From: a virus
Taxonomy: Duplodnaviria; Heunggongvirae; Uroviricota; Caudoviricetes
Length of the DNA stretch: 64,000 bases
IMG/VR virus record: IMGVR_UViG_2778261035_000005
Reading direction: 5' to 3' (one strand)
Program-made: the position numbers and the translations under genes
Shown here: positions 10,374-47,155 of the stretch, piece after piece
Layout of the letters: every line of letters begins with the position of its first letter
How positions within the stretch are numbered: the first letter of the stretch is position 1
Notes under the pieces: model-generated
The model's input: the letters and a program-made list of their open reading frames with translations, nothing else
Databases searched by the model: none
Told to the model about the DNA's origin: nothing

Positions 10374-10697
10374 ATGTCGAACGAGATGGCGGGCGTTACA
10401 ACAGAGCAAGTTGAGCGTATAGCCGCGATCGTTGCTCGGGAGGTTGTTGGCAAATTAGGTAAAGAGCTACGTGAAGAAATTGGCCAGGAGGTCAATGATC
10501 AGCTGAAAACCTACTTTGGTGATATGACCCCGGCGCAACATAGTATTCAACACTCCAATCTGGACAAACTCCTTAACCGGTTAGATTCCATCTCAAGTGG
10601 GTTCTTTGGCGGCATTGTTTCTAAAATAACGTCGTTCATTATTACCGCACTGCTTTTGGGGTTAGCCGCGTATGGCGTAAAAAGTGGACTGCAATAA
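10374..10697 (+). CDS. Putative holin-like lysis protein
   Basis: Small protein with a single C-terminal transmembrane segment directly upstream of the lysis genes; GGAGG RBS before the ATG at 10374. Function is positional inference only. Confidence 0.3.
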   Translation: MSNEMAGVTTEQVERIAAIVAREVVGKLGKELREEIGQEVNDQLKTYFGDMTPAQHSIQHSNLDKLLNRLDSISSGFFGGIVSKITSFIITALLLGLAAYGVKSGLQ

Positions 10698-10710
10698 CAG
10701 GAGATCAAGG

Positions 10711-11403
10711 ATGAAGACTCCGAGAGGCATTCGTAATAATAACCCCGGTAATCTTGATAAAGGATCACCGTGGCAAGGTCTGGTTGCGAATCCAGACGAA
10801 CCGCGCTTTTGCACGTTTAAAGACCCTGTTTGGGGGATTCGTGCGCTGGCGGTGACTCTAATTACCTACCACGATAAACGTCGCGCAAAAGACGGCACAA
10901 GTATCGATACCATTCGTGAAGTTATTGAACGCTGGGCACCGCCGAATGAAAACAATACTGACGCCTACATTAATGAGGTTTCTAAAGCCGTTGGTGTAAC
11001 CGCAGACATGATCATCGATCTGCATGATTACGACATCCTTCGACCTTTGGTTGAGGCAATCATTCGCCACGAGAATGGCCGAGGCCCGCTAAAAACGCTG
11101 AACACCTGGTATGCGGCAGAAGTTATTGAGGAAGGTCTGCGTCGAGCTGGCGTTGTTAAGCCGGTGAAAACCGTGAAGGCTGTTCCTGTAACTAAAGAAA
11201 CCGCAGGCGCAACTGTTACAGCAGGTATTGGTCTGGCGCAGCTGGCCGATGTTATGCCGCAGGTTTCCGCTGCTATGGATAAAGCACAAGGTCATATCTC
11301 TAGCGGGGATACAGTACGCATCATCTTCGGTATTGCCACTATTGTTGTGGCAGGATTCATTGCCTGGTCGCAGGTAAGAAAACATCAGAAAGGGATGGTC
11401 TAA
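10711..11403 (+). CDS. Putative endolysin-like peptidoglycan hydrolase with C-terminal TM segment
   Basis: Lies between the holin-like gene and Rz/Rz1; N-terminal GIRNNNPGNL motif; ATG at 10711 after AGGAG. Catalytic family not resolved. Confidence 0.4.
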   Translation: MKTPRGIRNNNPGNLDKGSPWQGLVANPDEPRFCTFKDPVWGIRALAVTLITYHDKRRAKDGTSIDTIREVIERWAPPNENNTDAYINEVSKAVGVTADMIIDLHDYDILRPLVEAIIRHENGRGPLKTLNTWYAAEVIEEGLRRAGVVKPVKTVKAVPVTKETAGATVTAGIGLAQLADVMPQVSAAMDKAQGHISSGDTVRIIFGIATIVVAGFIAWSQVRKHQKGMV

Positions 11404-11404
11404 T

Positions 11405-11656
11405 ATGCTAGGCAGCCTGATGACAAAGCTAAAAGTTGCTTTGATTACGCTGGCTGCCGTTCTTTTCGTTCTTGTCGGCGCTTACACGATGGGCGGGAAT
11501 GCGGCGCGACGAGCAATGGAAGAGAAGGCAAAACAGGAAGACAGAAAACGACTTCAAAGCACAGTGGAAGTGGTGAATGAGACGAGCAATAAAATACGTC
11601 AGAAAGATGCTTCTGCCGTTCATCGTGAGTTGTATGATAAGTGGGTGCGTCATTAA
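11405..11656 (+). CDS. Rz-like i-spanin
   Basis: 83 aa, N-terminal TM helix followed by a charged coiled-coil-like region; contains an embedded out-of-frame lipoprotein gene. Confidence 0.55.
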   Translation: MLGSLMTKLKVALITLAAVLFVLVGAYTMGGNAARRAMEEKAKQEDRKRLQSTVEVVNETSNKIRQKDASAVHRELYDKWVRH

Positions 11657-11792
11657 ACCACAAACCGCCAGCGTATTGTTCTGCGATGGAGCTGGGCCTA
11701 TCTATATCAGCAATAATGATGTGATGACCGAAGAAACCGAACGCCAAATCCTTTTTCACAATACGATGGGAGAGAGAGTTTGCGGTTGGTGA
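11577..11792 (+). CDS. Rz1-like o-spanin lipoprotein
   Basis: Starts inside the Rz gene in another frame and extends past it; signal peptide with lipobox ISGC. Confidence 0.5.
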   Translation: MRRAIKYVRKMLLPFIVSCMISGCVIKPQTASVLFCDGAGPIYISNNDVMTEETERQILFHNTMGERVCGW

Positions 11793-25525: not shown

Positions 25526-26806
25526 TTAATTAAAACCGAATGAATCAAGTTCTGCTTTTAATTTATCGACCATTTTTTCAACTTCAACCACAATTTCGCC
25601 AATCACCTTTTCTTTGTGTTGATTAGAGCTAAGTTCAAAATAGGCGTTATATAACGCATAACGAGACAGAAAATTTCTAATCTCATTAGCGGGTCTAATG
25701 GTGTAGCCATCGGTTAACACGATATCGGTCTGTCTAGAGTGCTTCTCGTTGAGTTTTATTAGCCGCTTTATCTGTTTTTCATCCTTGAGCACTATCACTT
25801 TGTTAGCTGCAATTTCAAGCTCCCAGCCGACAAAATAACGCAGCGTAGAATTTAATTTAGCCACTTCCTCGGCTGCAATTTCCATTTTCAGCTCAATGTA
25901 GTTTCGCATATGCATAGGTAGGTCATTAAATCTTTGCAGCAAATGTTGTCGGCAGGGGTTGTTGTAAGACCAAAGAACTGCAAACGTAAGCCTATGATAA
26001 CAGCTTATCGCATTGGTATTACAGGCCGAATCACCAACAATCATGCGATCAACATAAAACTCTACGTCTTTTTGGTATTCTTTATTGAATATATCAGCGG
26101 CATAGGTGTCCAGGTAATGAACTTTAGATATTGCATCTTCAAAGAAAAGTTCATTTTCGAAGAAGTTGTATTTGTTCAGGAGACGATAAAGTTTCTTTGC
26201 GTCGTAGGTTTTGCTATTGTCGACATTAAGACCAAAAATAGCAATCAGCAGACTTACTTTTGGACTAATGCTGTTGCGCAGTTGTTCTATGTAAGATCTC
26301 TTTTCACTATCCGCAGATGACGGCAGATAGAAGTCTTTATCTACATAATTTAGAATTAAAATAATGTGGTTAACATACTTAATATAAACAGGGTTTTTTG
26401 TTGCATAGTAATAAACGCCCTTGACGACTTTTATATTCAATTTCAAATTGTACTGACTATCATCCAGTAAGGTTTTGTTAACATCCTCAAGTAATTTATT
26501 ATGCTGTTCAAGTAATATGCCGTACCATTCCTTAAAAGAAGATTTTTTCATTTCAAGAAGCGAAGCCGCCGTCAGCCTGGTCGCTCTCATTGCCGCCTTT
26601 GCACTATGCCTTGCCTCATAAGCGGCCCATGCTGTGGCTAAAAAGGCAAGTGAAGTAGCAAGCGTACCTATAACCTCTACGTTTTCCTTGACGGTATCCC
26701 AGAAAATAATCATCACTGTCCCAAGTATGAGGATTAACAAAACAGGCATTTTATCAGTGTCTTTGGTTAATTTTGAAACTGAATGATACCTAATCGACCA
26801 TACCAT
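25526..26806 (-). CDS. Hypothetical membrane-anchored protein
   Basis: Up to 426 aa; two N-terminal TM helices and a ~350-aa cytoplasmic domain with no motif I can place; AT-rich codon usage; start may be 26749 instead. Confidence 0.55.
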   Translation of the reverse strand: MVWSIRYHSVSKLTKDTDKMPVLLILILGTVMIIFWDTVKENVEVIGTLATSLAFLATAWAAYEARHSAKAAMRATRLTAASLLEMKKSSFKEWYGILLEQHNKLLEDVNKTLLDDSQYNLKLNIKVVKGVYYYATKNPVYIKYVNHIILILNYVDKDFYLPSSADSEKRSYIEQLRNSISPKVSLLIAIFGLNVDNSKTYDAKKLYRLLNKYNFFENELFFEDAISKVHYLDTYAADIFNKEYQKDVEFYVDRMIVGDSACNTNAISCYHRLTFAVLWSYNNPCRQHLLQRFNDLPMHMRNYIELKMEIAAEEVAKLNSTLRYFVGWELEIAANKVIVLKDEKQIKRLIKLNEKHSRQTDIVLTDGYTIRPANEIRNFLSRYALYNAYFELSSNQHKEKVIGEIVVEVEKMVDKLKAELDSFGFN

Positions 26807-27080
26807 TTCAGCTAGTTTAAAGCTGTCTTGCCGGTTCTAGTGTGTCAACCTCACAAAGCCATTTCTGCTTAGTAACCAAACACATTAAATAGGTAATGAC
26901 TCACCTATTCATTTTAGCTATAGTCACGACACTTACTCACTTGAAAGGACTCTATATGGGAAACAAACGTAAACAGGCGCGTCGCGCAGCTCGTCAGGCA
27001 GTGAAGTCAAAGCCACGCATCCACGGCTACGAAATTGACACAATCATCGTTAATGAACAGCAGTTGCACGAGGTGAAGTG

Positions 27081-27326
27081 ATGAAAGTCGTTATCTACGG
27101 ACGAGATAACTGCTCATACTGCAAACGTGCGGTCGAGCTGGCGAAGCAACTAAAGGGACATGGCTACGGTGATTATGAGTACATAAACATCACCACTGCC
27201 GGTATCGATAAGGAAAAACTTAGCGAAATTGTTGGTAAACCGGTAGAGACTATCCCCCAGGTGCTGATCGATGGCCAGCCGATTGGCGGATACACAGAGA
27301 TGGCATCTTTCGTAAGTTTCTTATAA
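27081..27326 (+). CDS. Glutaredoxin-like protein (phage NrdC/NrdH-like)
   Basis: Active-site CSYC near the N-terminus and conserved TIPQVLIDGQPIGG; 82 aa. Confidence 0.7.
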   Translation: MKVVIYGRDNCSYCKRAVELAKQLKGHGYGDYEYINITTAGIDKEKLSEIVGKPVETIPQVLIDGQPIGGYTEMASFVSFL

Positions 27327-27363
27327 GTAAAAGCCACATCTTTGTACATATAGTACATATAAC

Positions 27364-27388
27364 AAAAAAGGCCCATATGGGCCTTTTT
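27364..27388. terminator. Bidirectional rho-independent terminator
   Basis: A-tract, palindrome GGCCCATATGGGCC, T-tract. Confidence 0.7.
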
Positions 27389-27510
27389 CATAACTTCTAG
27401 CTAACCACTACAGTGGCTTAAAGACCACTTCACCCTTGCGTTCAGCTTCAGCTTTAGCAGTCATGAATCGTTTGATCATTTCGACTTTGCTAGCATGGAT
27501 AGTTTTAAAA

Positions 27511-28065
27511 TCAATCTTCCCTTTGTTTTGGGTAGTGTTGTGTTCGTATCGCATAGGAAGCTCCGTCATTTAAATAAGTTAGGCCACGCTCTTGTGTAAA
27601 TCTCTTCACATATCTCTTGTATGTGGCCATCAGTTCTTCGCGTTCTGCCGCAAAGAATAAAATCTGTATGCCTTCATTGTCGGCAACTTTGAGCATTAAG
27701 TCAACTAAAGTACCGTAAAGGTATTGAAGTTCACCTAAAGTAAGATTAAAAGACCCTTCGGGTTTGGCAAATACGTTAATTGGCTCTTCCGCTCCAAGAG
27801 CGACATTCTGGAGCTGTTCTTGCTGCCTGTCAAGTTGAATCATGTCCACAAAACTAACGACAGATACACACAACCCATAAACATCAGCACCTAACATATT
27901 ATGCATAGTTTCTGCGGCAACAGGATCTAAAGAAGGAGGGCAAAAGACTAAACGGTATCTAGCCTTACGAGCTTCATTGCCAGAGAAAACAAAGTCTATA
28001 TCTAAATATGACAGATCACCCGGCAATGAAGCCAAACCAGGTGTAACCAACTTATGCAAGTGCAT
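27511..28065 (-). CDS. Hypothetical protein
   Basis: 184-aa ORF on the opposite strand; no recognisable motif; a 47-aa ORF (27413-27553, minus) overlaps its 3-prime end. Confidence 0.45.
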   Translation of the reverse strand: MHLHKLVTPGLASLPGDLSYLDIDFVFSGNEARKARYRLVFCPPSLDPVAAETMHNMLGADVYGLCVSVVSFVDMIQLDRQQEQLQNVALGAEEPINVFAKPEGSFNLTLGELQYLYGTLVDLMLKVADNEGIQILFFAAEREELMATYKRYVKRFTQERGLTYLNDGASYAIRTQHYPKQRED

Positions 28066-28332
28066 CTGTCTCGAATCCCTCTTTATTAGTATAAGTTGTC
28101 TTATTGTACCCTACCAAACGTTTATATGCATTGTTATGTATTATTTTGATTTTCAATATTACCTCCTAGAACGAAGGGTAGATTTCAAAAAACGCACCCT
28201 CAATGATTCCATACCTACTATGTATGGAATCATTACTGAAAATGAGTTACTTTTACTCTTGATCCTATAAGAATCTATGCCTAATATACTGTTTACTTAT
28301 ACAGTGCATCGGCGTAACTCGGTGATTGTCAT

Positions 28333-39367: not shown

Positions 39368-40396
39368 ATGTCTAAGACATTACTTGATTTGCTTAACAAA
39401 ACTCGTGAAGACATTGCCGCCAAACGTGGCAACAACGTTGATCTGACTCGTTTAAAAGACGGCGTCAACTATATCCGCATCTTCCCGAATAAAGACGACG
39501 CAAACGGTAAGTTCTTCCAGACTTTCGGTATGCACTACGTTAAGTATCAGAACGAGGAAGGTAAAGAAGCAACCAACGCTTATATTTGTGAGCAACATAC
39601 TCACGGTCGCGCTTGTCAGCTATGCGAAATGGTGATGGAAGGTCGCGCTCGTCACAAGGGTAACAAAGCAATGGAAGAACGCATCGGTCAAATGCGTGCC
39701 ACTCCTCGCTACCTGGTCAACGGCATTCTTTCTGCTCGTGAGGATTTCGCAGATGCTGAGAAATGCCAGTTAATCGAGCTGCCGTCTACTGTATTCGATG
39801 ATATCTGCAAAGCAATCACCGAAGACATCGCTGATGATATCGGCAATCCACTGAGCAAAGAGGAAGGCTACGCATTCCTGATTAAACGTACTGGCTCTGG
39901 TCGCGATACCAAATATGACGTCTCGCCTAAGCGTAAAGTCTACAAAGGCGATATCGAAGATAAATTCTGGAACACCCAGCATGATCTGATCGCATACGCA
40001 AATCAGGCTGATGAAACTCGTCTTCTGTCGACAGTTCGCACTATGGGTCGTCTGATTGGCATCGCTGCACCAACTGCCGCAGCATCTGCACCAGCAATTT
40101 CCTCAACCGCGAAAACATCGGCTGCGGCACTACCTGGATTTGGCTCTGTCACTGGTCATACAGAAGGAGCGACGGCTGTAGCAACCGCGCACACACCGGC
40201 TTCTGAACCAACCAGTCTGGTTGATGAAGAAATCCTCCGTGCCGTTGAAACTGAATTTAAACCAGAGGCAAGTTCCGCTGCCGTTGCCGTATCAGTCAAA
40301 GAGTCTGAAGCAGTCGCAGCGACATCTGTAGCAACCGCATCTGCGACGGAAGATGAAGGTCTGGATGACCTACTGAGAGAGCTGGACTCTCTGTAA
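39368..40396 (+). CDS. Single-stranded DNA-binding protein (gp32-like)
   Basis: Zn-binding-type motif CEQHTHGRACQLC; Ala/Ser-rich linker; acidic C-terminal tail EDEGLDDLLRELDSL. Confidence 0.55.
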   Translation: MSKTLLDLLNKTREDIAAKRGNNVDLTRLKDGVNYIRIFPNKDDANGKFFQTFGMHYVKYQNEEGKEATNAYICEQHTHGRACQLCEMVMEGRARHKGNKAMEERIGQMRATPRYLVNGILSAREDFADAEKCQLIELPSTVFDDICKAITEDIADDIGNPLSKEEGYAFLIKRTGSGRDTKYDVSPKRKVYKGDIEDKFWNTQHDLIAYANQADETRLLSTVRTMGRLIGIAAPTAAASAPAISSTAKTSAAALPGFGSVTGHTEGATAVATAHTPASEPTSLVDEEILRAVETEFKPEASSAAVAVSVKESEAVAATSVATASATEDEGLDDLLRELDSL

Positions 40397-40412
40397 TCCC
40401 ATTACGTGACCA

Positions 40413-40441
40413 GTAAGGCGTCTACGGACGCCTTACTTTTT
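40413..40441 (+). terminator. Rho-independent terminator (AGGCGTCC family)
   Basis: GTAAGGCGTC-TACG-GACGCCTTAC then TTTTT; lies inside the ORF-track start of the next gene. Confidence 0.7.
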
Positions 40442-40456
40442 GGAAGGAATGTACCG

Positions 40457-41401
40457 GTGAATTATCTCTTCGTAGATGGCAATAGCCTGGGTTATTACCA
40501 CCAACAATCTGACAAATTGCACAACGGCGAAATGGAAGTACAGGCTGCTTTCGGCTTTGTTAAGAACGTCCGTCGTTATGCCTCCATCCTCCATGCCCGA
40601 CCTATGATTCTTTGGGATGGATTTAGTGACAAGCGTCGCGACTTTTACCCGGACTACAAAGCAAATCGCGACGACGATCCTGATATGAAAAAGATGAAGG
40701 AAGGCTTTGCTATCCAGAAGCCATACATCCTCAAAATGATGACCGCGCTTGGTATTAACCAAATCATTGCAAAAGATGCAGAAGCGGATGATCTGGCCGG
40801 GCTGCTGGTATCCCGCATGGCACCGCAGCCAACCGTTGAACACATCTATCTGTTAACAGGCGATAGCGACTGGCTTCAGTTAGTTCGCGAAAACGTAAGC
40901 TGGGTAAGCCTGCGTGAAGACGCCAAAAACAAGCAGGTTAATTTTGAGCAATTTGCGGAGCTGACAGGATTCGCCACGCCTCGCGCATTTTTGGAAGCAA
41001 AAGCATTACAAGGCGATAACTCGGACAACATTAGCGGTGTTGGTGGCATTGGTGCTGGCGGTGCGAAAGAGCTGCTGCATGAATGGGGAAGTGTCGCAAC
41101 GATGGTACGCGGCATCAACGACGGCTCAATCGTGGTTAATAAAGGGCGTCATAAGACCGCCTTCAACAAACTAGCGAAGAATGCCTTCAACGAGAAAACA
41201 GGCTGTCGAATGCTCGAAGCGTTCAAGAGAAACATCACGCTAATGAACCTGATTGAGACGAAGTTTCCGCCTACCGAAATCGAAACAATCAAAGGCAATC
41301 GTGACGTGAAAGCATTCGAGCAACTGTGCTACGAGCTGAATTTCCGTTCGTTCCTTGAAGACCTTGAAGTGTTTGTTCTTCCATTCGAAAGGTATTGCTA
41401 A
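40457..41401 (+). CDS. 5-prime to 3-prime exonuclease / flap endonuclease
   Basis: N-terminal YLFVDGNSLGYY and H3TH-like GDNSDNISGVGGIG; GTG start at 40457 after GGAAGG chosen because the track start would include the terminator. Confidence 0.7.
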   Translation: MNYLFVDGNSLGYYHQQSDKLHNGEMEVQAAFGFVKNVRRYASILHARPMILWDGFSDKRRDFYPDYKANRDDDPDMKKMKEGFAIQKPYILKMMTALGINQIIAKDAEADDLAGLLVSRMAPQPTVEHIYLLTGDSDWLQLVRENVSWVSLREDAKNKQVNFEQFAELTGFATPRAFLEAKALQGDNSDNISGVGGIGAGGAKELLHEWGSVATMVRGINDGSIVVNKGRHKTAFNKLAKNAFNEKTGCRMLEAFKRNITLMNLIETKFPPTEIETIKGNRDVKAFEQLCYELNFRSFLEDLEVFVLPFERYC

Positions 41402-41667
41402 TGCTTAAATCGATTATCAATGGCGCTACAACCACCCCTGCCCAACTGGCAAAAGAGATTGTCTTTTATCACGGTGAGTACGCTGTCATCGCACTGCCGT
41501 CAATTCTAGGCGCTGCCGGAATGAAAGCGACAGATCGCGAGTTTGGATTAGTCAGCGAGCAGGTCGTAAAAATCCTCGCTCGTGTATCCAGACTCCTTAA
41601 CCACGATGCGATTGTATTCGATGAATCCGCCGCTTTAAAACGAATCAACGAAACAAAAGGAGCCTGA
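41401..41667 (+). CDS. Hypothetical protein
   Basis: 89-aa ORF overlapping the preceding stop (TAATG). Confidence 0.4.
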   Translation: MLKSIINGATTTPAQLAKEIVFYHGEYAVIALPSILGAAGMKATDREFGLVSEQVVKILARVSRLLNHDAIVFDESAALKRINETKGA

Positions 41668-41669
41668 TC

Positions 41670-42743
41670 ATGGCAAAAGGAAAATCCGCACTGGCACTTG
41701 CTCTGAAAAAGAAAATCGGTAGCAACGACGAAATTCAGAAAGTAACTCATTGGATTGATACAGGCTTTCCACCGTTAAACAAAGCTATTTCTGGTCGTTA
41801 CGATGGCGGCTTCCCATGTGGTCGTATCGTCGAAGTATTCGGTCCTCCAAGTGCAGGGAAAACGTTCCTTGCAACAGCAGCGATGATCTCCGCTCAAAAA
41901 CAAGATGGTCTGGCGGTATTCCTCGATCATGAAAACAGTTTTGACGTTGGCCTGGCTGTAGCCAATGGCCTGAACGCAGATGAGGATGACGGTCAGTGGG
42001 TATACAAGCAGCCTGACACCTTCGAAGACTCTGTAGAGTTGATCGGCACAATACTTAAATTGGTACGTGATGAAGAGCTTATCCCTGAATCAGCACCTAT
42101 CTGTATCGTGGCTGACTCACTTGCGTCTATGGTTCCGAACTCCAAAGCCGAGAAGTTCGAAAAGATGGCTGAAGGCACTGCCAAAGACAAAGATCAGCTA
42201 AACATGAACGACAATACGGCACTGGCTCGTGCGACAAGTGCGAACTTCCCTACTCTGGCTTTGTGGGCACGCAAATACAACGCCTGCATCATCTTCTTGA
42301 ATCAGGTTCGCACAAAAATCGGTGTAATGTTTGGCGACCCTACTACGTCGCCAGGTGGAGATTCACCGAAGTTCTACGCTTCTGTACGTATCCGTCTTGG
42401 TGCATCGGTGATGAAGGATGGTAAAGAGAAGATCGGCCAGGACGTAGGCGCAGAATGCATCAAAAACAAAGTTGCACCACCGTATGGCAAATGCACCTGG
42501 AAATTCTACTTCGATCCTACTCGTGGCCTCGACGTTATCGAATCGCTCGTCGAGTACATGCTGGAAGAAGGATACCTGCCAAAGAACGCCAGCGGGCGAG
42601 TTGAAATTGGTGACAAGAAATACACCAAATCGCAGATCGTCGAGATGTATCGGGAGAAGCCACTGGCTGAAATCATTGCGGCTTTGCAGGCAATCGACGA
42701 CCGAAGAGCAAAAGACAACCCCACCGAGTCAGTAGAAGAGTAA
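41670..42743 (+). CDS. RecA-like recombinase (UvsX/RecA family)
   Basis: Walker A GPPSAGKT within a RecA-like core; AAAGGAG RBS. Confidence 0.8.
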   Translation: MAKGKSALALALKKKIGSNDEIQKVTHWIDTGFPPLNKAISGRYDGGFPCGRIVEVFGPPSAGKTFLATAAMISAQKQDGLAVFLDHENSFDVGLAVANGLNADEDDGQWVYKQPDTFEDSVELIGTILKLVRDEELIPESAPICIVADSLASMVPNSKAEKFEKMAEGTAKDKDQLNMNDNTALARATSANFPTLALWARKYNACIIFLNQVRTKIGVMFGDPTTSPGGDSPKFYASVRIRLGASVMKDGKEKIGQDVGAECIKNKVAPPYGKCTWKFYFDPTRGLDVIESLVEYMLEEGYLPKNASGRVEIGDKKYTKSQIVEMYREKPLAEIIAALQAIDDRRAKDNPTESVEE

Positions 42744-42748
42744 ACACA

Positions 42749-42772
42749 AGGCGTCCACAGGACGCCTTTTTT
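42749..42772 (+). terminator. Rho-independent terminator (AGGCGTCC family)
   Basis: AGGCGTCC-ACA-GGACGCCT followed by TTTTTT. Confidence 0.75.
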
Positions 42773-42835
42773 ATCTCTTGAAAATATATAAGTACTTACT
42801 TATTATTTTCGCATAACAACCACATAGGAAAACAC

Positions 42836-43036
42836 ATGATCAAAATCTATCTATTGGCAGTAGCCACAGGCCTTTCAGTGGCTCTCATCTACGGTTTACT
42901 GGTTCCGTCGCTGATTTCTACCAAGAGTGATTTAGCCGTCATGTTTGGAGTTATCGTTGGTTTTGGTGCTCCTGTAATCGGTCTTATTGCTGGTCGTAAG
43001 TTTATCAACTCATTAATCAAAGCAAAGGGGAAATAA
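42836..43036 (+). CDS. Small two-TM membrane protein
   Basis: 66 aa, two hydrophobic helices; 4 bp upstream of the SPFH gene. Confidence 0.5.
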   Translation: MIKIYLLAVATGLSVALIYGLLVPSLISTKSDLAVMFGVIVGFGAPVIGLIAGRKFINSLIKAKGK

Positions 43037-43039
43037 GTA

Positions 43040-43870
43040 ATGAAGAAAGGTTTACTTGCAGTTGCTCTGGCGGCTATTTGCACAATGGGTCTTACTGGCT
43101 GTGATCGCGTGGAGCCTGGATACGTTGGCATCAAAGTAAACAAATTAGGTGAAGACAAAGGGATCGGTGAAGTGGTTGGCGTTGGTCGCCAATGGACAGG
43201 TCTTAACACCGAACTTTACGTATTCCCGACCTTCAAACAAATGAAGACCTACGACGAGCCGTTCACATTCCAGATGAGTGACGGTACTGCTATTGGTCAC
43301 AAAATTGGCGTTGCGTATCTGGTTAATCGTGACAAGGTAACGACGGTGTTCCAGACCTATCGCAAAGGCGTAGACGATATCACCGAATCAGATCTGCGTC
43401 AGAAAATTGCCGACTCTCTAAACCGTTTGGCCAGCCGTATGACCACTGACTCATTTATCGACGGTGGTAAGGCGCAATTGCTGGACAACGCACTGAAAGA
43501 TATTCAGAAAGAGATGTCTCCGGTTGGTATTGAGGTACTGAGCCTGTCATGGGTTGGAAAGCCTGATTACCCAAAAACCGTCATTGAATCTATCAACGCC
43601 AAAGTAACGGCTAACCAGCGTACTCTGCAACGTCAGCAGGAAGTTGAACAGCGTAAAGCTGAGGCGAATATGCTACGTGAACAGGCTAATGGTGAAGCTG
43701 ATGCTATCCGTGCTCGTGCGCAAGCAGAAGCCGACGCCATTCGTCTGCGCGGTGAAGCTCTGCGTCAAAACCCGAACGTTATGGAGCTGGAAGCCATCAA
43801 TAAATGGAATGGCCAGTTACCGCAGTACATGACTCAAGGGGCTAACACTCCTTTCATTACAGTGAAATAA
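43040..43870 (+). CDS. SPFH/band-7 (stomatin/prohibitin-like) lipoprotein
   Basis: Signal peptide with lipobox LTGC; band-7-like core; Ala/Glu/Arg-rich coiled-coil tail (EADAIRARAQAEADAIRLRGEAL). Confidence 0.65.
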   Translation: MKKGLLAVALAAICTMGLTGCDRVEPGYVGIKVNKLGEDKGIGEVVGVGRQWTGLNTELYVFPTFKQMKTYDEPFTFQMSDGTAIGHKIGVAYLVNRDKVTTVFQTYRKGVDDITESDLRQKIADSLNRLASRMTTDSFIDGGKAQLLDNALKDIQKEMSPVGIEVLSLSWVGKPDYPKTVIESINAKVTANQRTLQRQQEVEQRKAEANMLREQANGEADAIRARAQAEADAIRLRGEALRQNPNVMELEAINKWNGQLPQYMTQGANTPFITVK

Positions 43871-43886
43871 CTCCCCTAAAAAGTTC

Positions 43887-43911
43887 AGGCGTCCAGTTGG
43901 ACGCCTTTTTT
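43887..43911 (+). terminator. Rho-independent terminator (AGGCGTCC family)
   Basis: AGGCGTCCA-GT-TGGACGCCT followed by TTTTTT. Confidence 0.75.
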
Positions 43912-43930
43912 ATCGCAATTATCTTATTAA

Positions 43931-43949
43931 GAAAACAATTTGTTTAAAA
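43931..43949 (+). promoter_or_regulatory. Conserved motif GAAAACAATTTGTTTAAAA
   Basis: Identical to the copy at 16118-16136; ends 12 bp before the ATG at 43962. Confidence 0.45.
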
Positions 43950-43961
43950 GGATAAGAAAAC

Positions 43962-44387
43962 ATGACAGTTATTAAGAAACTCTACGATGCCGCAAACGCG
44001 GCTCTGGATGTTATTGATGATGAAGTATCAAAAGGCTTTCCTGAACCTGATTGGGCGCATCAGCTACGAAACGCTATCGCAGAAATGACCCCATCAGATC
44101 CAACCCCCGACGAGACAGACTGGCAGCGATTCATCCGTATGTACGCTCAGGAAATAGGTCCAACGCCAACGGCAGAGCAGGCAATGCTGCTGAAATACTT
44201 CAAAGAGGCGGGAGAGGATTTACCAATTGATGACTCAGCATATTGGTTCCACTGCGCATGGCGTAAGTATGACGTGATATTCACACAAGGCATGGGAAGC
44301 AAAGATATGGTTGTGTGGCATCTACTCCATATAGACACAGCCGTTGACAGAGTTATTGAACAGTTTTTCCCTAACCAAGAAGATTGA
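43962..44387 (+). CDS. Hypothetical protein
   Basis: 141-aa ORF; no recognisable motif. Confidence 0.45.
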   Translation: MTVIKKLYDAANAALDVIDDEVSKGFPEPDWAHQLRNAIAEMTPSDPTPDETDWQRFIRMYAQEIGPTPTAEQAMLLKYFKEAGEDLPIDDSAYWFHCAWRKYDVIFTQGMGSKDMVVWHLLHIDTAVDRVIEQFFPNQED

Positions 44388-44442
44388 TCGCCTATTCATA
44401 ACTAACAAAATAAGTAAACACTAACCACAAAAGGAAAAACAC

Positions 44443-44718
44443 ATGAGAGTTTTAGTTCGAATCGTTACCAGCACTGTCTATGACGTGTTTCCGCTTTTTA
44501 TGGTCAAAGTCGATGGCCTTAACGATGAAGAAACTGACGCGCTGATCCAGCGTACTCTTGTTGAATATACAGGTCATGACGCTGATTCAGTGATGGTTGA
44601 TGATGATGGTGTTTGTTGGCATAACGGCAACTGTTGGTACGTAGAAGAGACTCAACAAATCAGTAATGAAGATGCTGAACATCTTGAGCGTATTTTAAGC
44701 ATCAGCACTTTTGAGTGA
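44443..44718 (+). CDS. Hypothetical protein
   Basis: 91-aa ORF following the conserved RBS context. Confidence 0.45.
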   Translation: MRVLVRIVTSTVYDVFPLFMVKVDGLNDEETDALIQRTLVEYTGHDADSVMVDDDGVCWHNGNCWYVEETQQISNEDAEHLERILSISTFE

Positions 44719-44757
44719 GTTTACAGTAAAGTTTATATAAGTTAGTATTTACCTATC

Positions 44758-44937
44758 ATGAAGATTTTTATTGAATACTTGTTACTCATCGTTTCAATAG
44801 CTTTTGTCATCGACTGCATTTTCACTGGTGTCATTCGTAAAGTCTTTTCCCCGGTGCACGACGTAGTCATAAACGCTTTGGCTATCGTGCTCGTATTTAA
44901 TTCAGCATTTGATGTAATCAAAGAGGTGGCAGCATGA
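44758..44937 (+). CDS. Small membrane protein (59 aa)
   Basis: Not in the ORF track; hydrophobic throughout; stop overlaps the next start (ATGA). Confidence 0.35.
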   Translation: MKIFIEYLLLIVSIAFVIDCIFTGVIRKVFSPVHDVVINALAIVLVFNSAFDVIKEVAA

Positions 44938-45269
44938 AGACCATCCCATTCGCGCTGTTGTTTCTTTCTTCGATCGTTGTGGCCGACACCACTGTTTATC
45001 AGTGTGAAATGTCTGTAGCCGACGTTAAGAATGGCGCTCTTACCGACGTCATAAAAGCACCATATGGAGCGATGGTCGTAGACAGCGGCGACCAGTTCTA
45101 TGTTGTGCGTGACGATCGAGTGTTGTCATCCCCATATCTCACAAATCGTAATGGCAAATTAACCGGCGTCGGAGAAGACCACTTCGTATACAACAAATAC
45201 AAGGGCTTCTATGGCGTTCACGCTTCTCAGCAAAGCTACCTTTTCGATGACTGCAAGGAGGTTGGGTAA
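44934..45269 (+). CDS. Secreted hypothetical protein
   Basis: N-terminal signal peptide MKTIPFALLFLSSIVVA. Confidence 0.5.
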   Translation: MKTIPFALLFLSSIVVADTTVYQCEMSVADVKNGALTDVIKAPYGAMVVDSGDQFYVVRDDRVLSSPYLTNRNGKLTGVGEDHFVYNKYKGFYGVHASQQSYLFDDCKEVG

Positions 45270-45481
45270 TGGCATTAACACTGGCAGGTCTGGAAATCGA
45301 GAAAACAAGCGGCTACTGGCGTGCTAAGGGTTTCAAGCAGCCTGGCATTCTTGAGCGTCTGGAACGTGAAGATGGGTATATCGTCCACCAGCGGCGTGAA
45401 TGGCGTATGTACGATCCAGAAACAGGAAAACTGACTACAAAAGCCGGAACACTTTGGGGTCTGTTAAAGAAAATACACTAA
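45269..45481 (+). CDS. Hypothetical small protein
   Basis: 70-aa ORF with start overlapping the preceding stop. Confidence 0.4.
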   Translation: MALTLAGLEIEKTSGYWRAKGFKQPGILERLEREDGYIVHQRREWRMYDPETGKLTTKAGTLWGLLKKIH

Positions 45482-45527
45482 ATGCAAACTGACTGCGGCA
45501 CGTTCCGCAGTCATATTTCATAGTCGT

Positions 45528-46061
45528 CACCGCTGACAGCATACACAATCAACTACCGCTGATAGCATATCGAGAGTCTATCTCACCGCTCACAGCATAC
45601 TTTACTCGATTTTTTACCGCTGACAGCATACTTAAGACATTGCATGAATAATGTGTACCGGTATGGGTATAACCAGAACAAAATTACCGCTGGCAGCATA
45701 CGAATGTCTGACATATGCCATTAATTACCGCTGATAGCATATCCAAACAAAAATTCCTCAATAAAACACCGCTGACAGCATACGTTCTATCAGGGAGTAG
45801 CAGGCAATAAATGCCTTTCACTACAAGCAATCAGCGCAATAGCAATAGAATGTTAGTGAGCGCAAACCTATATGGAATGCACTCTTCGAGGTTAGTAACC
45901 ACTGGGGAGGTATGACAGAGCATTGAGTGGTGATAGATGATTTACCGCTCACAGCATACGTTCATCTCACTATACCGCTGGTAGCATATCTTTAACCGTT
46001 CACAGCATACTTTTCAGAAAAATAGCCGCTGATAGCATACATTTCACCGCTGACAGCATAT
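45528..46061. repeat. Iteron array (12 copies of about 18 bp, consensus TTACCGCTGACAGCATAC) downstream of rep
   Basis: Copies at 45528, 45553, 45583, 45614, 45684, 45725, 45767, 45942, 45972, 45993, 46023, 46044; spacings mostly near multiples of about 10.5 bp. Confidence 0.85.
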
Positions 46062-47155
46062 CAAAGCAGTTTGAGACTATTGGAAAGGATCTCAATCATC
46101 TTGATATTTTCAGGCGTCAAATTCTGCGAAAGTTCGGTTATCTTGTTGATAATGTTCTGTTTGGCATCAATTTCCCCAGCTTTCTCATCTGGTTTTTTGG
46201 GTTCGATGTCTTCAGGTTTTGGCGGTGCGACTTTGAGTTTTGGATTGCGGCTGTGAATCTGGATATAGATCGACCGCCCACGCTTAATCTCGCTGTATTC
46301 GAGATAGCCCAAATCTTGGAGAGCTTTTAAGCCGTTACGTATAGTCTGATTCTGCGAGCTGACATTCCTGCTACTCAAATTGAGTCGCGCACGCAATCGA
46401 GCAAGCGATACCGGCGCAGGCTTGGTTGGAAGACTTTCGATGAAGGTGTACAGAGCCTGTGCTGTTTCTTTGCGTGGTAGCTTATTGATAACCTTTAACT
46501 GCAAAAGAACCTTATGGTCAAAGCGATATAGTTCGGCCAGCTTCGGTTCTGCATAGAACACCACCGTATCTTTCTGCTCGTTGTAGTCCACGCTATTGAT
46601 GAGGTGCACCATCAGAAGCGAGATCTTGTTAGAGCCGTCGACGTTCTTTTCTTCATACGTTCTCTGGAAAGACAGAGTTGTACGCATGATCTTCAAAAGA
46701 CTGTTTGTAAGCCGGTCGCGGAGTGTTTTGCGGATCTGTGACGATGGATAGCCACAAAACTTAGCAAATTTCGTGATGCTTAACTCGACACGACCGTTAG
46801 GTTCGCCGTATTCTGCCAGCGAACGCACAACGCCCACCCACGTTTTGAAATCATGATCCATGTCGAGACGAGGACCGGTTATCTTGATATCGGAATAGCC
46901 TTCAGAACGGGCTACTTCGAGCTGGACAAGCTCCTTTGAAGCATCGATCTCATTTGGCTTGTTACGTTTACTGTATTTTGTTCCCTTAAGCGTGGGGACG
47001 AACAACCCCAGTCGCATCAACGCAATTGGTTGGACTGTATTGTTGCTATTAGGGACAAGTTCCCCTGTGTACAATTCAAGGGAACCTTCTTCAAAGTTGT
47101 CGATGTTATCTTCTACTTCTTTGTTATTTTTACCTTTTTTATTTTTTGTGGACAT
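46061..47155 (-). CDS. Iteron-binding plasmid replication initiator (RepA/RepE-like)
   Basis: 364-aa basic protein flanked on both sides by its iterons; ATG at 47155 after an AAAGG RBS preferred over the track start, which would include promoter iterons. Confidence 0.7.
   Translation of the reverse strand: MSTKNKKGKNNKEVEDNIDNFEEGSLELYTGELVPNSNNTVQPIALMRLGLFVPTLKGTKYSKRNKPNEIDASKELVQLEVARSEGYSDIKITGPRLDMDHDFKTWVGVVRSLAEYGEPNGRVELSITKFAKFCGYPSSQIRKTLRDRLTNSLLKIMRTTLSFQRTYEEKNVDGSNKISLLMVHLINSVDYNEQKDTVVFYAEPKLAELYRFDHKVLLQLKVINKLPRKETAQALYTFIESLPTKPAPVSLARLRARLNLSSRNVSSQNQTIRNGLKALQDLGYLEYSEIKRGRSIYIQIHSRNPKLKVAPPKPEDIEPKKPDEKAGEIDAKQNIINKITELSQNLTPENIKMIEILSNSLKLL

Follow-up and report, generated by a model that had tools for sequence, protein, structure and literature searches.

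A probable moron-type cassette pairing an SPFH lipoprotein with a small two-helix membrane protein in a phage-plasmid of the Cyrano type

SPFH proteins are universal membrane organisers whose cage architecture has been solved recently, and their functions in bacteria are still largely open. In QmcA and YqiK, which are encoded beside NfeD-type partners, the SPFH domain and the NfeD OB-fold are cytoplasmic. Small envelope proteins produced early or from morons, with two transmembrane (TM) helices and/or exported as lipoproteins, are known from superinfection exclusion (T4 Imm and Sp, P22 SieA, HK97 gp15, T5 Llp and phi80 Cor), among virulent phages as well as temperate ones, and exclusion proteins are usually fast-evolving and lineage-specific. 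Genome papers from 2006 onward have pointed out phage SPFH genes. In Pasteurella multocida, a prophage encodes an SPFH protein similar to HflK/C, PM0222, which was reported to be released in outer-membrane vesicles (OMVs) and to signal through Toll-like receptor (TLR) 1/2, and whose deletion attenuates virulence (PMC9872710). Here, we describe a pair of genes at positions 42,836 to 43,870 of a 64,000-nt stretch of tailed-phage DNA (Caudoviricetes; IMG/VR record IMGVR_UViG_2778261035_000005), the whole of which is called the window below. The first gene encodes a very small membrane protein, hereafter the partner, and the second an SPFH lipoprotein. As to what the pair does, we lean tentatively, and with less than even confidence, toward envelope protection or superinfection exclusion.

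The cassette and its boundaries

The pair very probably constitutes an autonomous, dispensable cassette of the "moron" type, consisting of a terminator, a sigma-70 promoter, two genes and a second terminator, and representing a module conserved across many phages, in which gene 1 encodes an inner-membrane hairpin of two TM helices and gene 2 an exported, lipid-anchored SPFH protein. The features of the cassette are listed below (ORF, open reading frame; AF2, AlphaFold2 model).

42748..42768, plus strand: upstream intrinsic terminator, copy 1, closing the recA/uvsX-like gene; GGCGTCC…GGACGCC hairpin and U-tract (-14.7 kcal/mol, z -6.1)
42760..43914, no strand: presence/absence unit of ~1,139 bp, bounded by the 16-nt direct repeat GGACGCCTTTTTTATC at 42760-42775 and 43899-43914 (spacing 1139 nt)
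42778..42806, plus strand: sigma-70-like promoter TTGAAA-17-TATTAT (10/12 match), between the first terminator and the small gene
42836..43036, plus strand: partner gene, predicted 66-aa inner-membrane helical hairpin (ORF; PHROG 1130; AF2)
43040..43870, plus strand: SPFH/Band-7 lipoprotein gene, 276 aa (ORF; Pfam Band_7, PHROG 200, AF2, Foldseek)
43040-43099, plus strand: signal peptide, residues 1-20
43100-43102, plus strand: predicted lipidated Cys21, with Asp22 at +2
43106-43666, plus strand: SPFH domain, residues ~23-209
43574-43804, plus strand: long helices, residues 179-255
43887..43906, plus strand: downstream intrinsic terminator, copy 2, at the cassette end; same hairpin (-15.1 kcal/mol, z -5.2)

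The limits of the cassette are best seen in relatives that do not have it. Cronobacter pFS2 and certain phage-plasmids of Klebsiella and Enterobacter do not carry the ~1.14-kb unit, and all of them retain the recombinase gene and the downstream genes. In these elements, recA is followed by a single GGCGTCC…GGACGCC terminator and then by the DUF7238 gene, and the sequence past the single terminator (ATTATC…AAGAAAACAATTTGTT or ATTATC…TTAAGAAAACAATTTGTTT) is the one that follows the second terminator here. The exact absence of the unit from relatives that keep one terminator indicates a dispensable cassette of the moron type. The other traits of a moron are also found, namely a predicted promoter and terminators of its own and a position between genes that are adjacent in related phages. 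The unit may have been inserted, or it may have been lost by recombination between the 16-nt repeats, the data being compatible with either direction. Its GC content (0.44-0.50) equals that of the flanks and gives no sign of a foreign origin.

The initial annotation, made from the sequence alone, had described the pair as a discrete cassette lying between two terminators of the same family. This description holds, since GGCGTCC-N-GGACGCC sites occur only twice in the window (none expected), both as the terminators flanking the cassette, and since the block as a whole is absent from close relatives. Each of the two hairpins is followed by UUUUUUAU. The same annotation had counted dispensability without a phenotype as evidence against its reading. 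The cassette-free relatives bear out the natural dispensability, but dispensability does not show absence of function. As a side observation, the terminator stem upstream of the partner in a Y. pestis plasmid relative (L094) reads GGCGCCC…GGGCGCC instead of GGCGTCC…GGACGCC, a compensatory double change that keeps the hairpin.

The promoter, which went unmentioned in the initial annotation, is the top sigma-70-like match within the 7-kb region from 40000 to 47000. Its spacer holds a perfect palindrome, TAAGTACTTA (42789-42798), inside a larger imperfect one (42783-42804), and the block comprising the -35 box, spacer and -10 box (CTTGAAAATATATAAGTACTTACTTAT) hardly varies among relatives that share no more than ~77-80% identity in their flanks. 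Such conservation amid divergent flanks suggests a bound regulator, and the palindrome may serve as a candidate operator. That TAAGTACTTA is a repeated operator seems doubtful: the window contains one exact copy, and the one-mismatch copies lack a similar promoter context. Partial look-alikes were noted at ~39261 and 52925, both on the minus strand.

The two proteins and the linkage of their genes

The second product had been annotated as an SPFH-domain lipoprotein with a long Ala/Glu/Arg helical tail, and our searches agree with this. The 276-aa protein matches Pfam Band_7 (PF01145) over residues 23-209 with 106.2 bits against a cut-off of 23.6 (E 2.6e-30), and PHROG 200, "lipoprotein", at E 3e-108. 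Its AF2 model, with a predicted local distance difference test score (pLDDT) of 78.6, comprises a signal helix, a beta-rich SPFH1, an alpha/beta SPFH2, a 65-residue helix (179-243) that is rich in Ala, Glu, Arg and Gln over residues ~190-243, and a short helix (245-255). The C-terminal ~20 residues were modelled with low confidence, which is what one would expect if this segment gains its fold only upon oligomerisation. The annotation hinged on the presence of an SPFH fold, and the fold is present in this model, for which Foldseek returned a probability of 1.0 over ~260-300 columns to full-length subunits of solved cages, including prohibitin (8rrh), HflK/C (7vhq and 7wi3), erlin, stomatin, flotillin, QmcA (8z5g) and the vault shoulder. 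Older annotations of genes of this family as "serine protease" or "transposase fusion" found no support in any domain search that we ran.

The N-terminus (MKKGLLAVALAAICTMGLTGC followed by DR) is a classical lipoprotein signal, MKK-GLLAVALAAICTMG-LTG-C21, with a basic n-region, a hydrophobic h-region and the lipobox LTGC, which agrees with the pattern [LVI][ASTVI][GAS]C and predicts lipidation of Cys21. Across 39 close homologues, G20, C21, D22 and R23 each reach at least 90% conservation, and DR follows the cysteine in 51 of the unique family sequences examined. According to the Lol-avoidance rule of E. coli, an Asp at +2 retains a lipoprotein in the inner membrane. Asp22 would thus favour inner-membrane retention, with the SPFH domain in the periplasm on the outer leaflet, that is, in the orientation of HflK/C. 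Distant relatives have an uncleaved type-II TM anchor in place of the lipobox, which likewise puts the SPFH domain outside the cytoplasm. Some of these distant relatives (L308, L312, L299, L309 and L102) have neither a lipobox nor a separate partner gene; they carry at the N-terminus either a single TM helix that stays uncleaved or a fusion of two TM helices to the SPFH domain. They were considered as Rosetta-stone fusions of partner and SPFH protein and discarded, as their one or two N-terminal TM helices have a topology unlike that of a simple fusion.

This predicted orientation, together with the type-II anchors of distant relatives, raises the possibility that the lipoprotein regulates FtsH or another inner-membrane client. 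A periplasmic cage analogous to HflK/C would capture or compete for FtsH, altering the degradation of phage regulators and small phage membrane proteins, in the way that lambda CIII acts by inhibiting FtsH. By sequence, the nearest characterised families are indeed HflC (TIGR01932, E 2e-7) and HflK (TIGR01933, E 9.5e-4), and HflK (7vhq, E 0.007) was the only match in a sequence search of the PDB. However, the scores fall far under the equivalog cut-offs of both models (30.2 against 134.4 bits for TIGR01932 and 18.7 against 159.4 bits for TIGR01933), and in its fold the protein resembles HflK/C no more than it does prohibitin or erlin, sharing 15-19% identity with each. Regulation of FtsH seems unlikely to us, even with the additional points from conservation and gene position given below.

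The partner (MIKIYLLAVATGLSVALIYGLLVPSLISTKSDLAVMFGVIVGFGAPVIGLIAGRKFINSLIKAKGK) had been annotated as a tiny protein with two TM helices, and both the 66-aa ORF and the AF2 model, a helical hairpin (helices 2-28 and 32-65, pLDDT 82), are in accord with this. It matches PHROG 1130, "membrane protein", at E 2.1e-25. Basic residues at both ends, including a basic C-terminal tail, predict by the positive-inside rule an N-in/C-in topology in which only the TKS turn is periplasmic. Family alignments (A1, A3) that drew on SSU5-like, P1-like, P2-like, N4-like, PVP-SE1 and Vibrio phages revealed that P24, S28 and P46 are invariant and that G38 is at least 90% conserved, with the motif hhP-x-[LM]-[IV]-S-[AS]-x-[DS]-[ST] at the end of TM1 and a Gly followed by a Pro in TM2. 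Profile searches recovered 183 clusters in the annotated database, all of them lacking both Pfam domains and informative names, and 800 representative clusters in the full library at E<=1e-3, nearly all of 55-90 aa. Matches from a PDB profile search, and from Pfam scans of the partner and eight relatives, were spurious and due to hydrophobicity.

The initial annotation had further named NfeD-type proteins as the usual partners of SPFH proteins; were the small protein one of them, the locus would be a canonical SPFH-NfeD operon with a reduced NfeD. The operon logic is indeed the same, with a membrane partner encoded directly upstream of the SPFH gene as in the canonical, structurally solved pair QmcA-YbbJ (8z5g). 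Nevertheless, none of nine family members (the window partner and eight other diverse ones) matched the NfeD Pfam model (PF01957) at E<=1, the 66-aa chain, being all helix from residue 2 to residue 65, leaves no room for an OB-fold, and the SPFH domain is here predicted to be extracytoplasmic. NfeD membership of the partner is thus largely refuted, and we regard such an operon as exceedingly improbable.

In its shape, the partner resembles class II holins and small pore-formers (~65 aa, two TM helices, predicted N-in/C-in topology and a charged, basic C-terminus), which suggests another possibility: a holin-like permeabiliser that is held inactive by the SPFH cage until superinfection disturbs the envelope, that is, an effector-restraint pair acting in abortive infection. 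The tight coupling of the genes, which recalls toxin-antitoxin logic, and the cassette's own predicted promoter would fit such a pair. On the other hand, the glycine-rich TM2 of this partner allele is not conserved across the family, the putative toxin is encoded first with no sign of differential stability, a PADLOC search gave no match, and the module also occurs in strictly virulent phages, in which abortive infection makes little sense. The gene position does not match that of a class II holin either, as the neighbours are the recombinase and DUF7238 genes and not endolysin or spanin genes. We consider an effector-restraint pair very unlikely.

That the two proteins may act together is suggested by the linkage of their genes. 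As had been annotated, the SPFH gene starts 4 bp after the last base of the small gene's stop codon. The ATG at 43040 is in the same frame as the ORF at 42836-43036, with 3 nt (GTA) between TAA and ATG, and a Shine-Dalgarno-like motif, GGGGA, lies inside the 3' end of the small gene. With five queries drawn from different clades, we surveyed the surroundings of SPFH-lipoprotein genes at 317 loci. These loci hold 131 unique SPFH sequences, ~98 of them with a same-strand ORF of the partner family upstream, which lies within 50 nt in 87 cases. In a stricter pass with 83 unique pairs, a 4-nt overlap was the commonest spacing (49/83). The tight linkage and the frequent 4-nt overlap suggest translational coupling and a two-protein complex. 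In the reverse direction, distant partner representatives picked without regard to context lay directly upstream of an SPFH lipoprotein gene in six of six cases.

The pair was found in the P2-like phage P88, P1-like and SSU5-like phage-plasmids, lambdoid prophages, the N4-like phage KpCHEMY26, PVP-SE1, Vibrio phage CKB-S1 and Pseudomonas phage TL, and the most distant clades, namely Bacteroidales elements, Felix-O1-like Erwinia phages and phiCbK, lack the partner or have something else in its place. The residue at +2, considered as a predictor of partner presence, proved uninformative, as the partner occurs with Asp, Glu and Ser alike. In the virulent phages PVP-SE1 (gp116, L086) and Pseudomonas TL (gp11, L087), a small soluble-looking ORF lies between the partner and SPFH genes, which indicates that the module can hold a third gene.

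The two genes differ in their divergence between the E. coli and Y. pestis lineages, for which the following protein identities were obtained.

RecA: 95%
SPFH protein: 94%
Exonuclease: 92%
DUF7238: 75%
Partner: 59%

The neighbouring genes DUF7238, orf91 and orf111 have identities of 68-75% in the same comparison. An SPFH identity close to that of RecA implies strong constraint on the SPFH protein, and high conservation across very different hosts fits a universal target such as FtsH. The partner, judging from its alignments, is tolerant of many hydrophobic substitutions around four fixed residues. In comparisons with Cyrano, L027 and L048, a mosaic block at ~42651-43050, covering the 3' end of recA, the promoter region and the partner, is 76-88% identical, except for one poorly aligned 50-nt stretch, and the SPFH gene is mostly 98-100% identical, with the ends falling to 84-96% in L027. 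As read from these identity profiles, the junction between partner and SPFH gene is a recombination breakpoint.

Genomic setting and distribution

A phage origin of the element, as initially annotated, is confirmed by the 93.6-99.4% identity of the cassette region to the Escherichia phages Cyrano, PhiR41_1 and CMS-2020a, members of a ~108-kb phage-plasmid family, and a wider 3.6-kb stretch is a 100% match to the E. coli plasmid NZ_AP022089.1. Cyrano is a ~108-kb phage of the siphovirus type that encodes RepA, ParA/ParB, toxin-antitoxin genes, a repressor and a large replication/recombination block, and it is therefore a phage-plasmid, of a group that we take to be the SSU5 family. Relatives of the element are present in Salmonella, Klebsiella, Enterobacter, Kluyvera and Y. 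pestis. The cassette sits within the replication/recombination block, between the RecA/UvsX-like recombinase gene (41670-42743) upstream and the DUF7238 gene (43962-44387) downstream.

The recombinase gene has no intein in this element. The Cyrano recombinase product is 780 aa long, several plasmid relatives are annotated as "intein-containing recombinase RecA" or "LAGLIDADG family homing endonuclease", and the insertion point in relatives corresponds to ~41860, at the P-loop (GPPSAGKT). The insertion in relatives and its absence here point to a presence/absence polymorphism of a homing element. Further downstream, a hairpin with a 9-bp stem (TGACTGCGG…CCGCAGTCA) at 45490-45513, just past an ORF ending at 45481, has a terminator-like score on both strands.

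SPFH homologues were found in 413 of 50,697 phage records, including lambdoid and Stx phages, P2-like P88, N4-like phages, PVP-SE1-like myoviruses, LUZ24-like podoviruses, Felix-O1-like phages, phiCbK, crAss-like phages and Lak megaphages. Among complete E. coli genomes, 737 of 5,426 carry a homologue, about half of them on plasmids and half in chromosomal prophages. The wider 3.6-kb query, which includes recA and downstream genes, matched 1,037 plasmid records. Virulent phages with large genomes and temperate phages alike contain the module.

The frequent occurrence on clinical Enterobacterales plasmids, including those of Y. pestis, together with the moron architecture and the PM0222 precedent (PMC9872710), might suggest a lysogenic-conversion or virulence lipoprotein that aids the bacterium in animals by immune stimulation or as OMV cargo. 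Yet the family is equally found in virulent and environmental phages of Caulobacter, marine Vibrio, Erwinia and Rhizobium. Moreover, any triacylated lipoprotein is a TLR1/2 ligand, and the PM0222 phenotype may therefore be generic; PM0222 may also not be a family member. We judge a virulence function to be highly improbable.

In every case inspected, the pair lies among early or DNA-metabolism genes. Lambdoid prophages have it on the side from the repressor to xis and int, that is, in the leftward early region, P88 between cox and a replication gene, and an N4-like phage next to RNA-polymerase and dUTPase genes. PVP-SE1 and TL have annotated sigma-70 promoters upstream of the pair, and metagenomic phages have it beside genes for ThyX, SSB, RNA ligase or ParA. 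In many P1-like phage-plasmids (e.g., L056), though not in P1 itself, it is found between dmt/tRNAs and ban, at the variable locus that in P1 holds upl/plp/tciABC. The P1 genes upl and plp were considered as homologues of the pair and rejected, since the products of plp (125 aa) and upl (63 aa) bear no relation to it and the two ORFs lie antisense to the tRNA region. They look like doubtful ORFs (L084, P1 69472-70041). Cyrano has TciA/TciB-like genes elsewhere, at 81-82 kb.

The leftward early region of lambda holds cIII, and the position of the pair in lambdoid prophages is a further point in favour of an action on FtsH; the benefit that strictly virulent phages would draw from such an action is speculative.

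Gene position also bears on the possibility, raised in the initial annotation, of a role in lysis timing. SPFH proteins in general organise and stabilise membrane domains, and an SPFH scaffold might steady the inner membrane and the proton-motive force, preventing premature holin triggering and lengthening the productive period. Its presence in both virulent large-genome and temperate phages would fit such an optimisation of infection, as would its presumed expression from host-type promoters ahead of the lysis genes. However, none of the loci inspected had the pair beside holin, endolysin or spanin genes, and in the window the holin-endolysin-Rz-Rz1 cassette (10374-11792, 98.7% identical to Cyrano 26739-28157) is ~31 kb away. 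In addition, the pair is dispensable in close relatives with the same lysis cassette family, and neither protein has similarity to known antiholins. A membrane-integrity or lysis-timing module is, in our view, quite unlikely.

Proposed role and comparison with known systems

Envelope protection or superinfection exclusion, our preferred role, could work as follows. The lipoprotein is laid out in full like a cage-forming SPFH subunit, its membrane anchor being followed by SPFH1/2, by the long helix that forms the wall in such cages, by another helix and by a C-terminal tail, and it would oligomerise into a ring or dome over a patch of the inner membrane on its periplasmic face. The partner hairpin would supply the part that spans the bilayer and the basic cytoplasmic tail, and the two polypeptides together would rebuild an HflK/C-like subunit, the invariant P-x3-S at the periplasmic end of TM1 being a likely contact point. 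Expression of the module would fall early in infection and, in this element, perhaps extend to the plasmid-prophage state. The module would insulate or stabilise the inner membrane from the periplasmic side and so shield the occupied cell from outside insults, among which DNA entry by superinfecting phages is the prime candidate. Slight hints in this direction come from the PHROG class of the partner ("moron, auxiliary metabolic gene and host takeover"), from a Vi01-like phage in which an SPFH gene adjoins an annotated superinfection-exclusion gene, and from the variable P1 locus mentioned above, whose tciABC are TerB-like membrane-stress genes.

Several observations weigh against this role. 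PADLOC-DB v2 contained no family matching either protein at E<=1, and neither Band 7 nor HflK/C, stomatin or prohibitin is mentioned in two large defence screens; the ATPase encoded by the Gifsy defence gene gipd474 is unrelated. Literature searches on SPFH proteins in phages and prophages yielded mentions in genome annotations and no functional test, and a phage paper of 2026 calls the SPFH role "unclear" (PMC13239085). For prophage SPFH proteins, the one phenotype that we found reported is the virulence phenotype from Pasteurella (PMC9872710). The SPFH protein is as conserved as RecA and spans phages of Enterobacteria, Vibrio, Pseudomonas, Burkholderia, Caulobacter and Bacteroidales, and such conservation over a wide host range is more in keeping with a host target that is universal, or with a membrane-physical role, than with an arms race. 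The distant clades that lack the partner, or have an N-terminal TM anchor of their own, indicate that the partner is not universally required. As for topology, the Asp+2 rule is the one ground for inner-membrane retention, the Arg at +3 may weaken that signal, and the +2 residue is Ser or Glu in relatives that have the same partner. The Pasteurella prophage protein, at most a possible family member, was reported in outer-membrane vesicles (PMC9872710). Finally, both the oligomerisation and the contact between partner and SPFH protein are putative.

The same strong conservation and wide host range keep the FtsH and membrane-physical readings alive. A broader proposal would unite these elements in a new, phage-specific class of SPFH system, in which an HflK/C-like cage is split over a lipoprotein and a two-TM subunit and deployed early, fencing off or capturing some universal component of the inner membrane (FtsH, for instance, or the route of DNA entry) and thereby controlling host proteolysis or the entry of competitors. 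We hold this proposal to be doubtful, although if the module did block superinfection or modulate FtsH, it would be relevant to the design of phage cocktails and to the fitness of phage-plasmids. N4-like, PVP-SE1-like and LUZ24-like phages are used as therapeutic candidates.

With regard to what has been described before, phage SPFH genes and PHROG families for both proteins are already known, and the sequence itself is public at 100% identity. We did not find descriptions of the pairing with a dedicated two-TM family other than NfeD, of the extracytoplasmic, lipid-anchored orientation, or of the consistent early-gene position. Despite being common, the family is annotated as "hypothetical", "lipoprotein", "serine protease" or "transposase". 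The pair offers a small, tractable system in which to ask how an SPFH assembly acts at the inner membrane's outer face and how a phage benefits from it, having a defined partner family, a presumably periplasmic orientation, probable early expression and a 1.1-kb unit that is present or absent in otherwise near-identical phage-plasmids.

Compared with known superinfection-exclusion proteins (Imm, Sp, SieA, gp15, Llp and Cor), which are lineage-specific and have no SPFH domain, the phage SPFH module is widely conserved, and no similarity to them was detected in Pfam, PHROG and PADLOC searches. PM0222 is likewise an HflK/C-like SPFH protein encoded by a prophage, but its reported role concerns host inflammation via OMVs and not phage biology. 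The SPFH-NfeD operons (QmcA-YbbJ, YqiK-YqiJ and the archaeal stomatin pair PH1511-PH1510; 8z5g) share with the phage module a co-oriented, presumably co-transcribed membrane partner gene directly upstream of the SPFH gene, and partner TM helices that plausibly lie in the membrane patch under the SPFH assembly. In contrast to them, the phage partner has neither the NfeD OB-fold nor a ClpP-like domain, and the phage SPFH domain is predicted to be on the opposite side of the membrane.

HflK/HflC (7vhq, 7wi3, 9cz2) resemble the phage lipoprotein over ~260-300 columns in SPFH1/2, the long helix and the C-terminal segment, and probably also in facing the periplasm. They differ from it in sequence (16-19% identity) and in being anchored by an N-terminal TM helix instead of a lipid. 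Moreover, the phage module consists of one SPFH gene and a separate two-TM protein, not a K/C pair, and it is phage-borne and dispensable. The same two families are represented by the members of PHROG 200/1130, that is, P88 gp12/gp11, phiP27 L05, PVP-SE1 gp117/gp115, the SPFH lipoprotein of N4-like phages (gp20 in Jura) and TL gp12/gp10. However, the pairs of those phages are embedded in early operons, whereas the pair described here is free-standing, with its own promoter and duplicated terminators.

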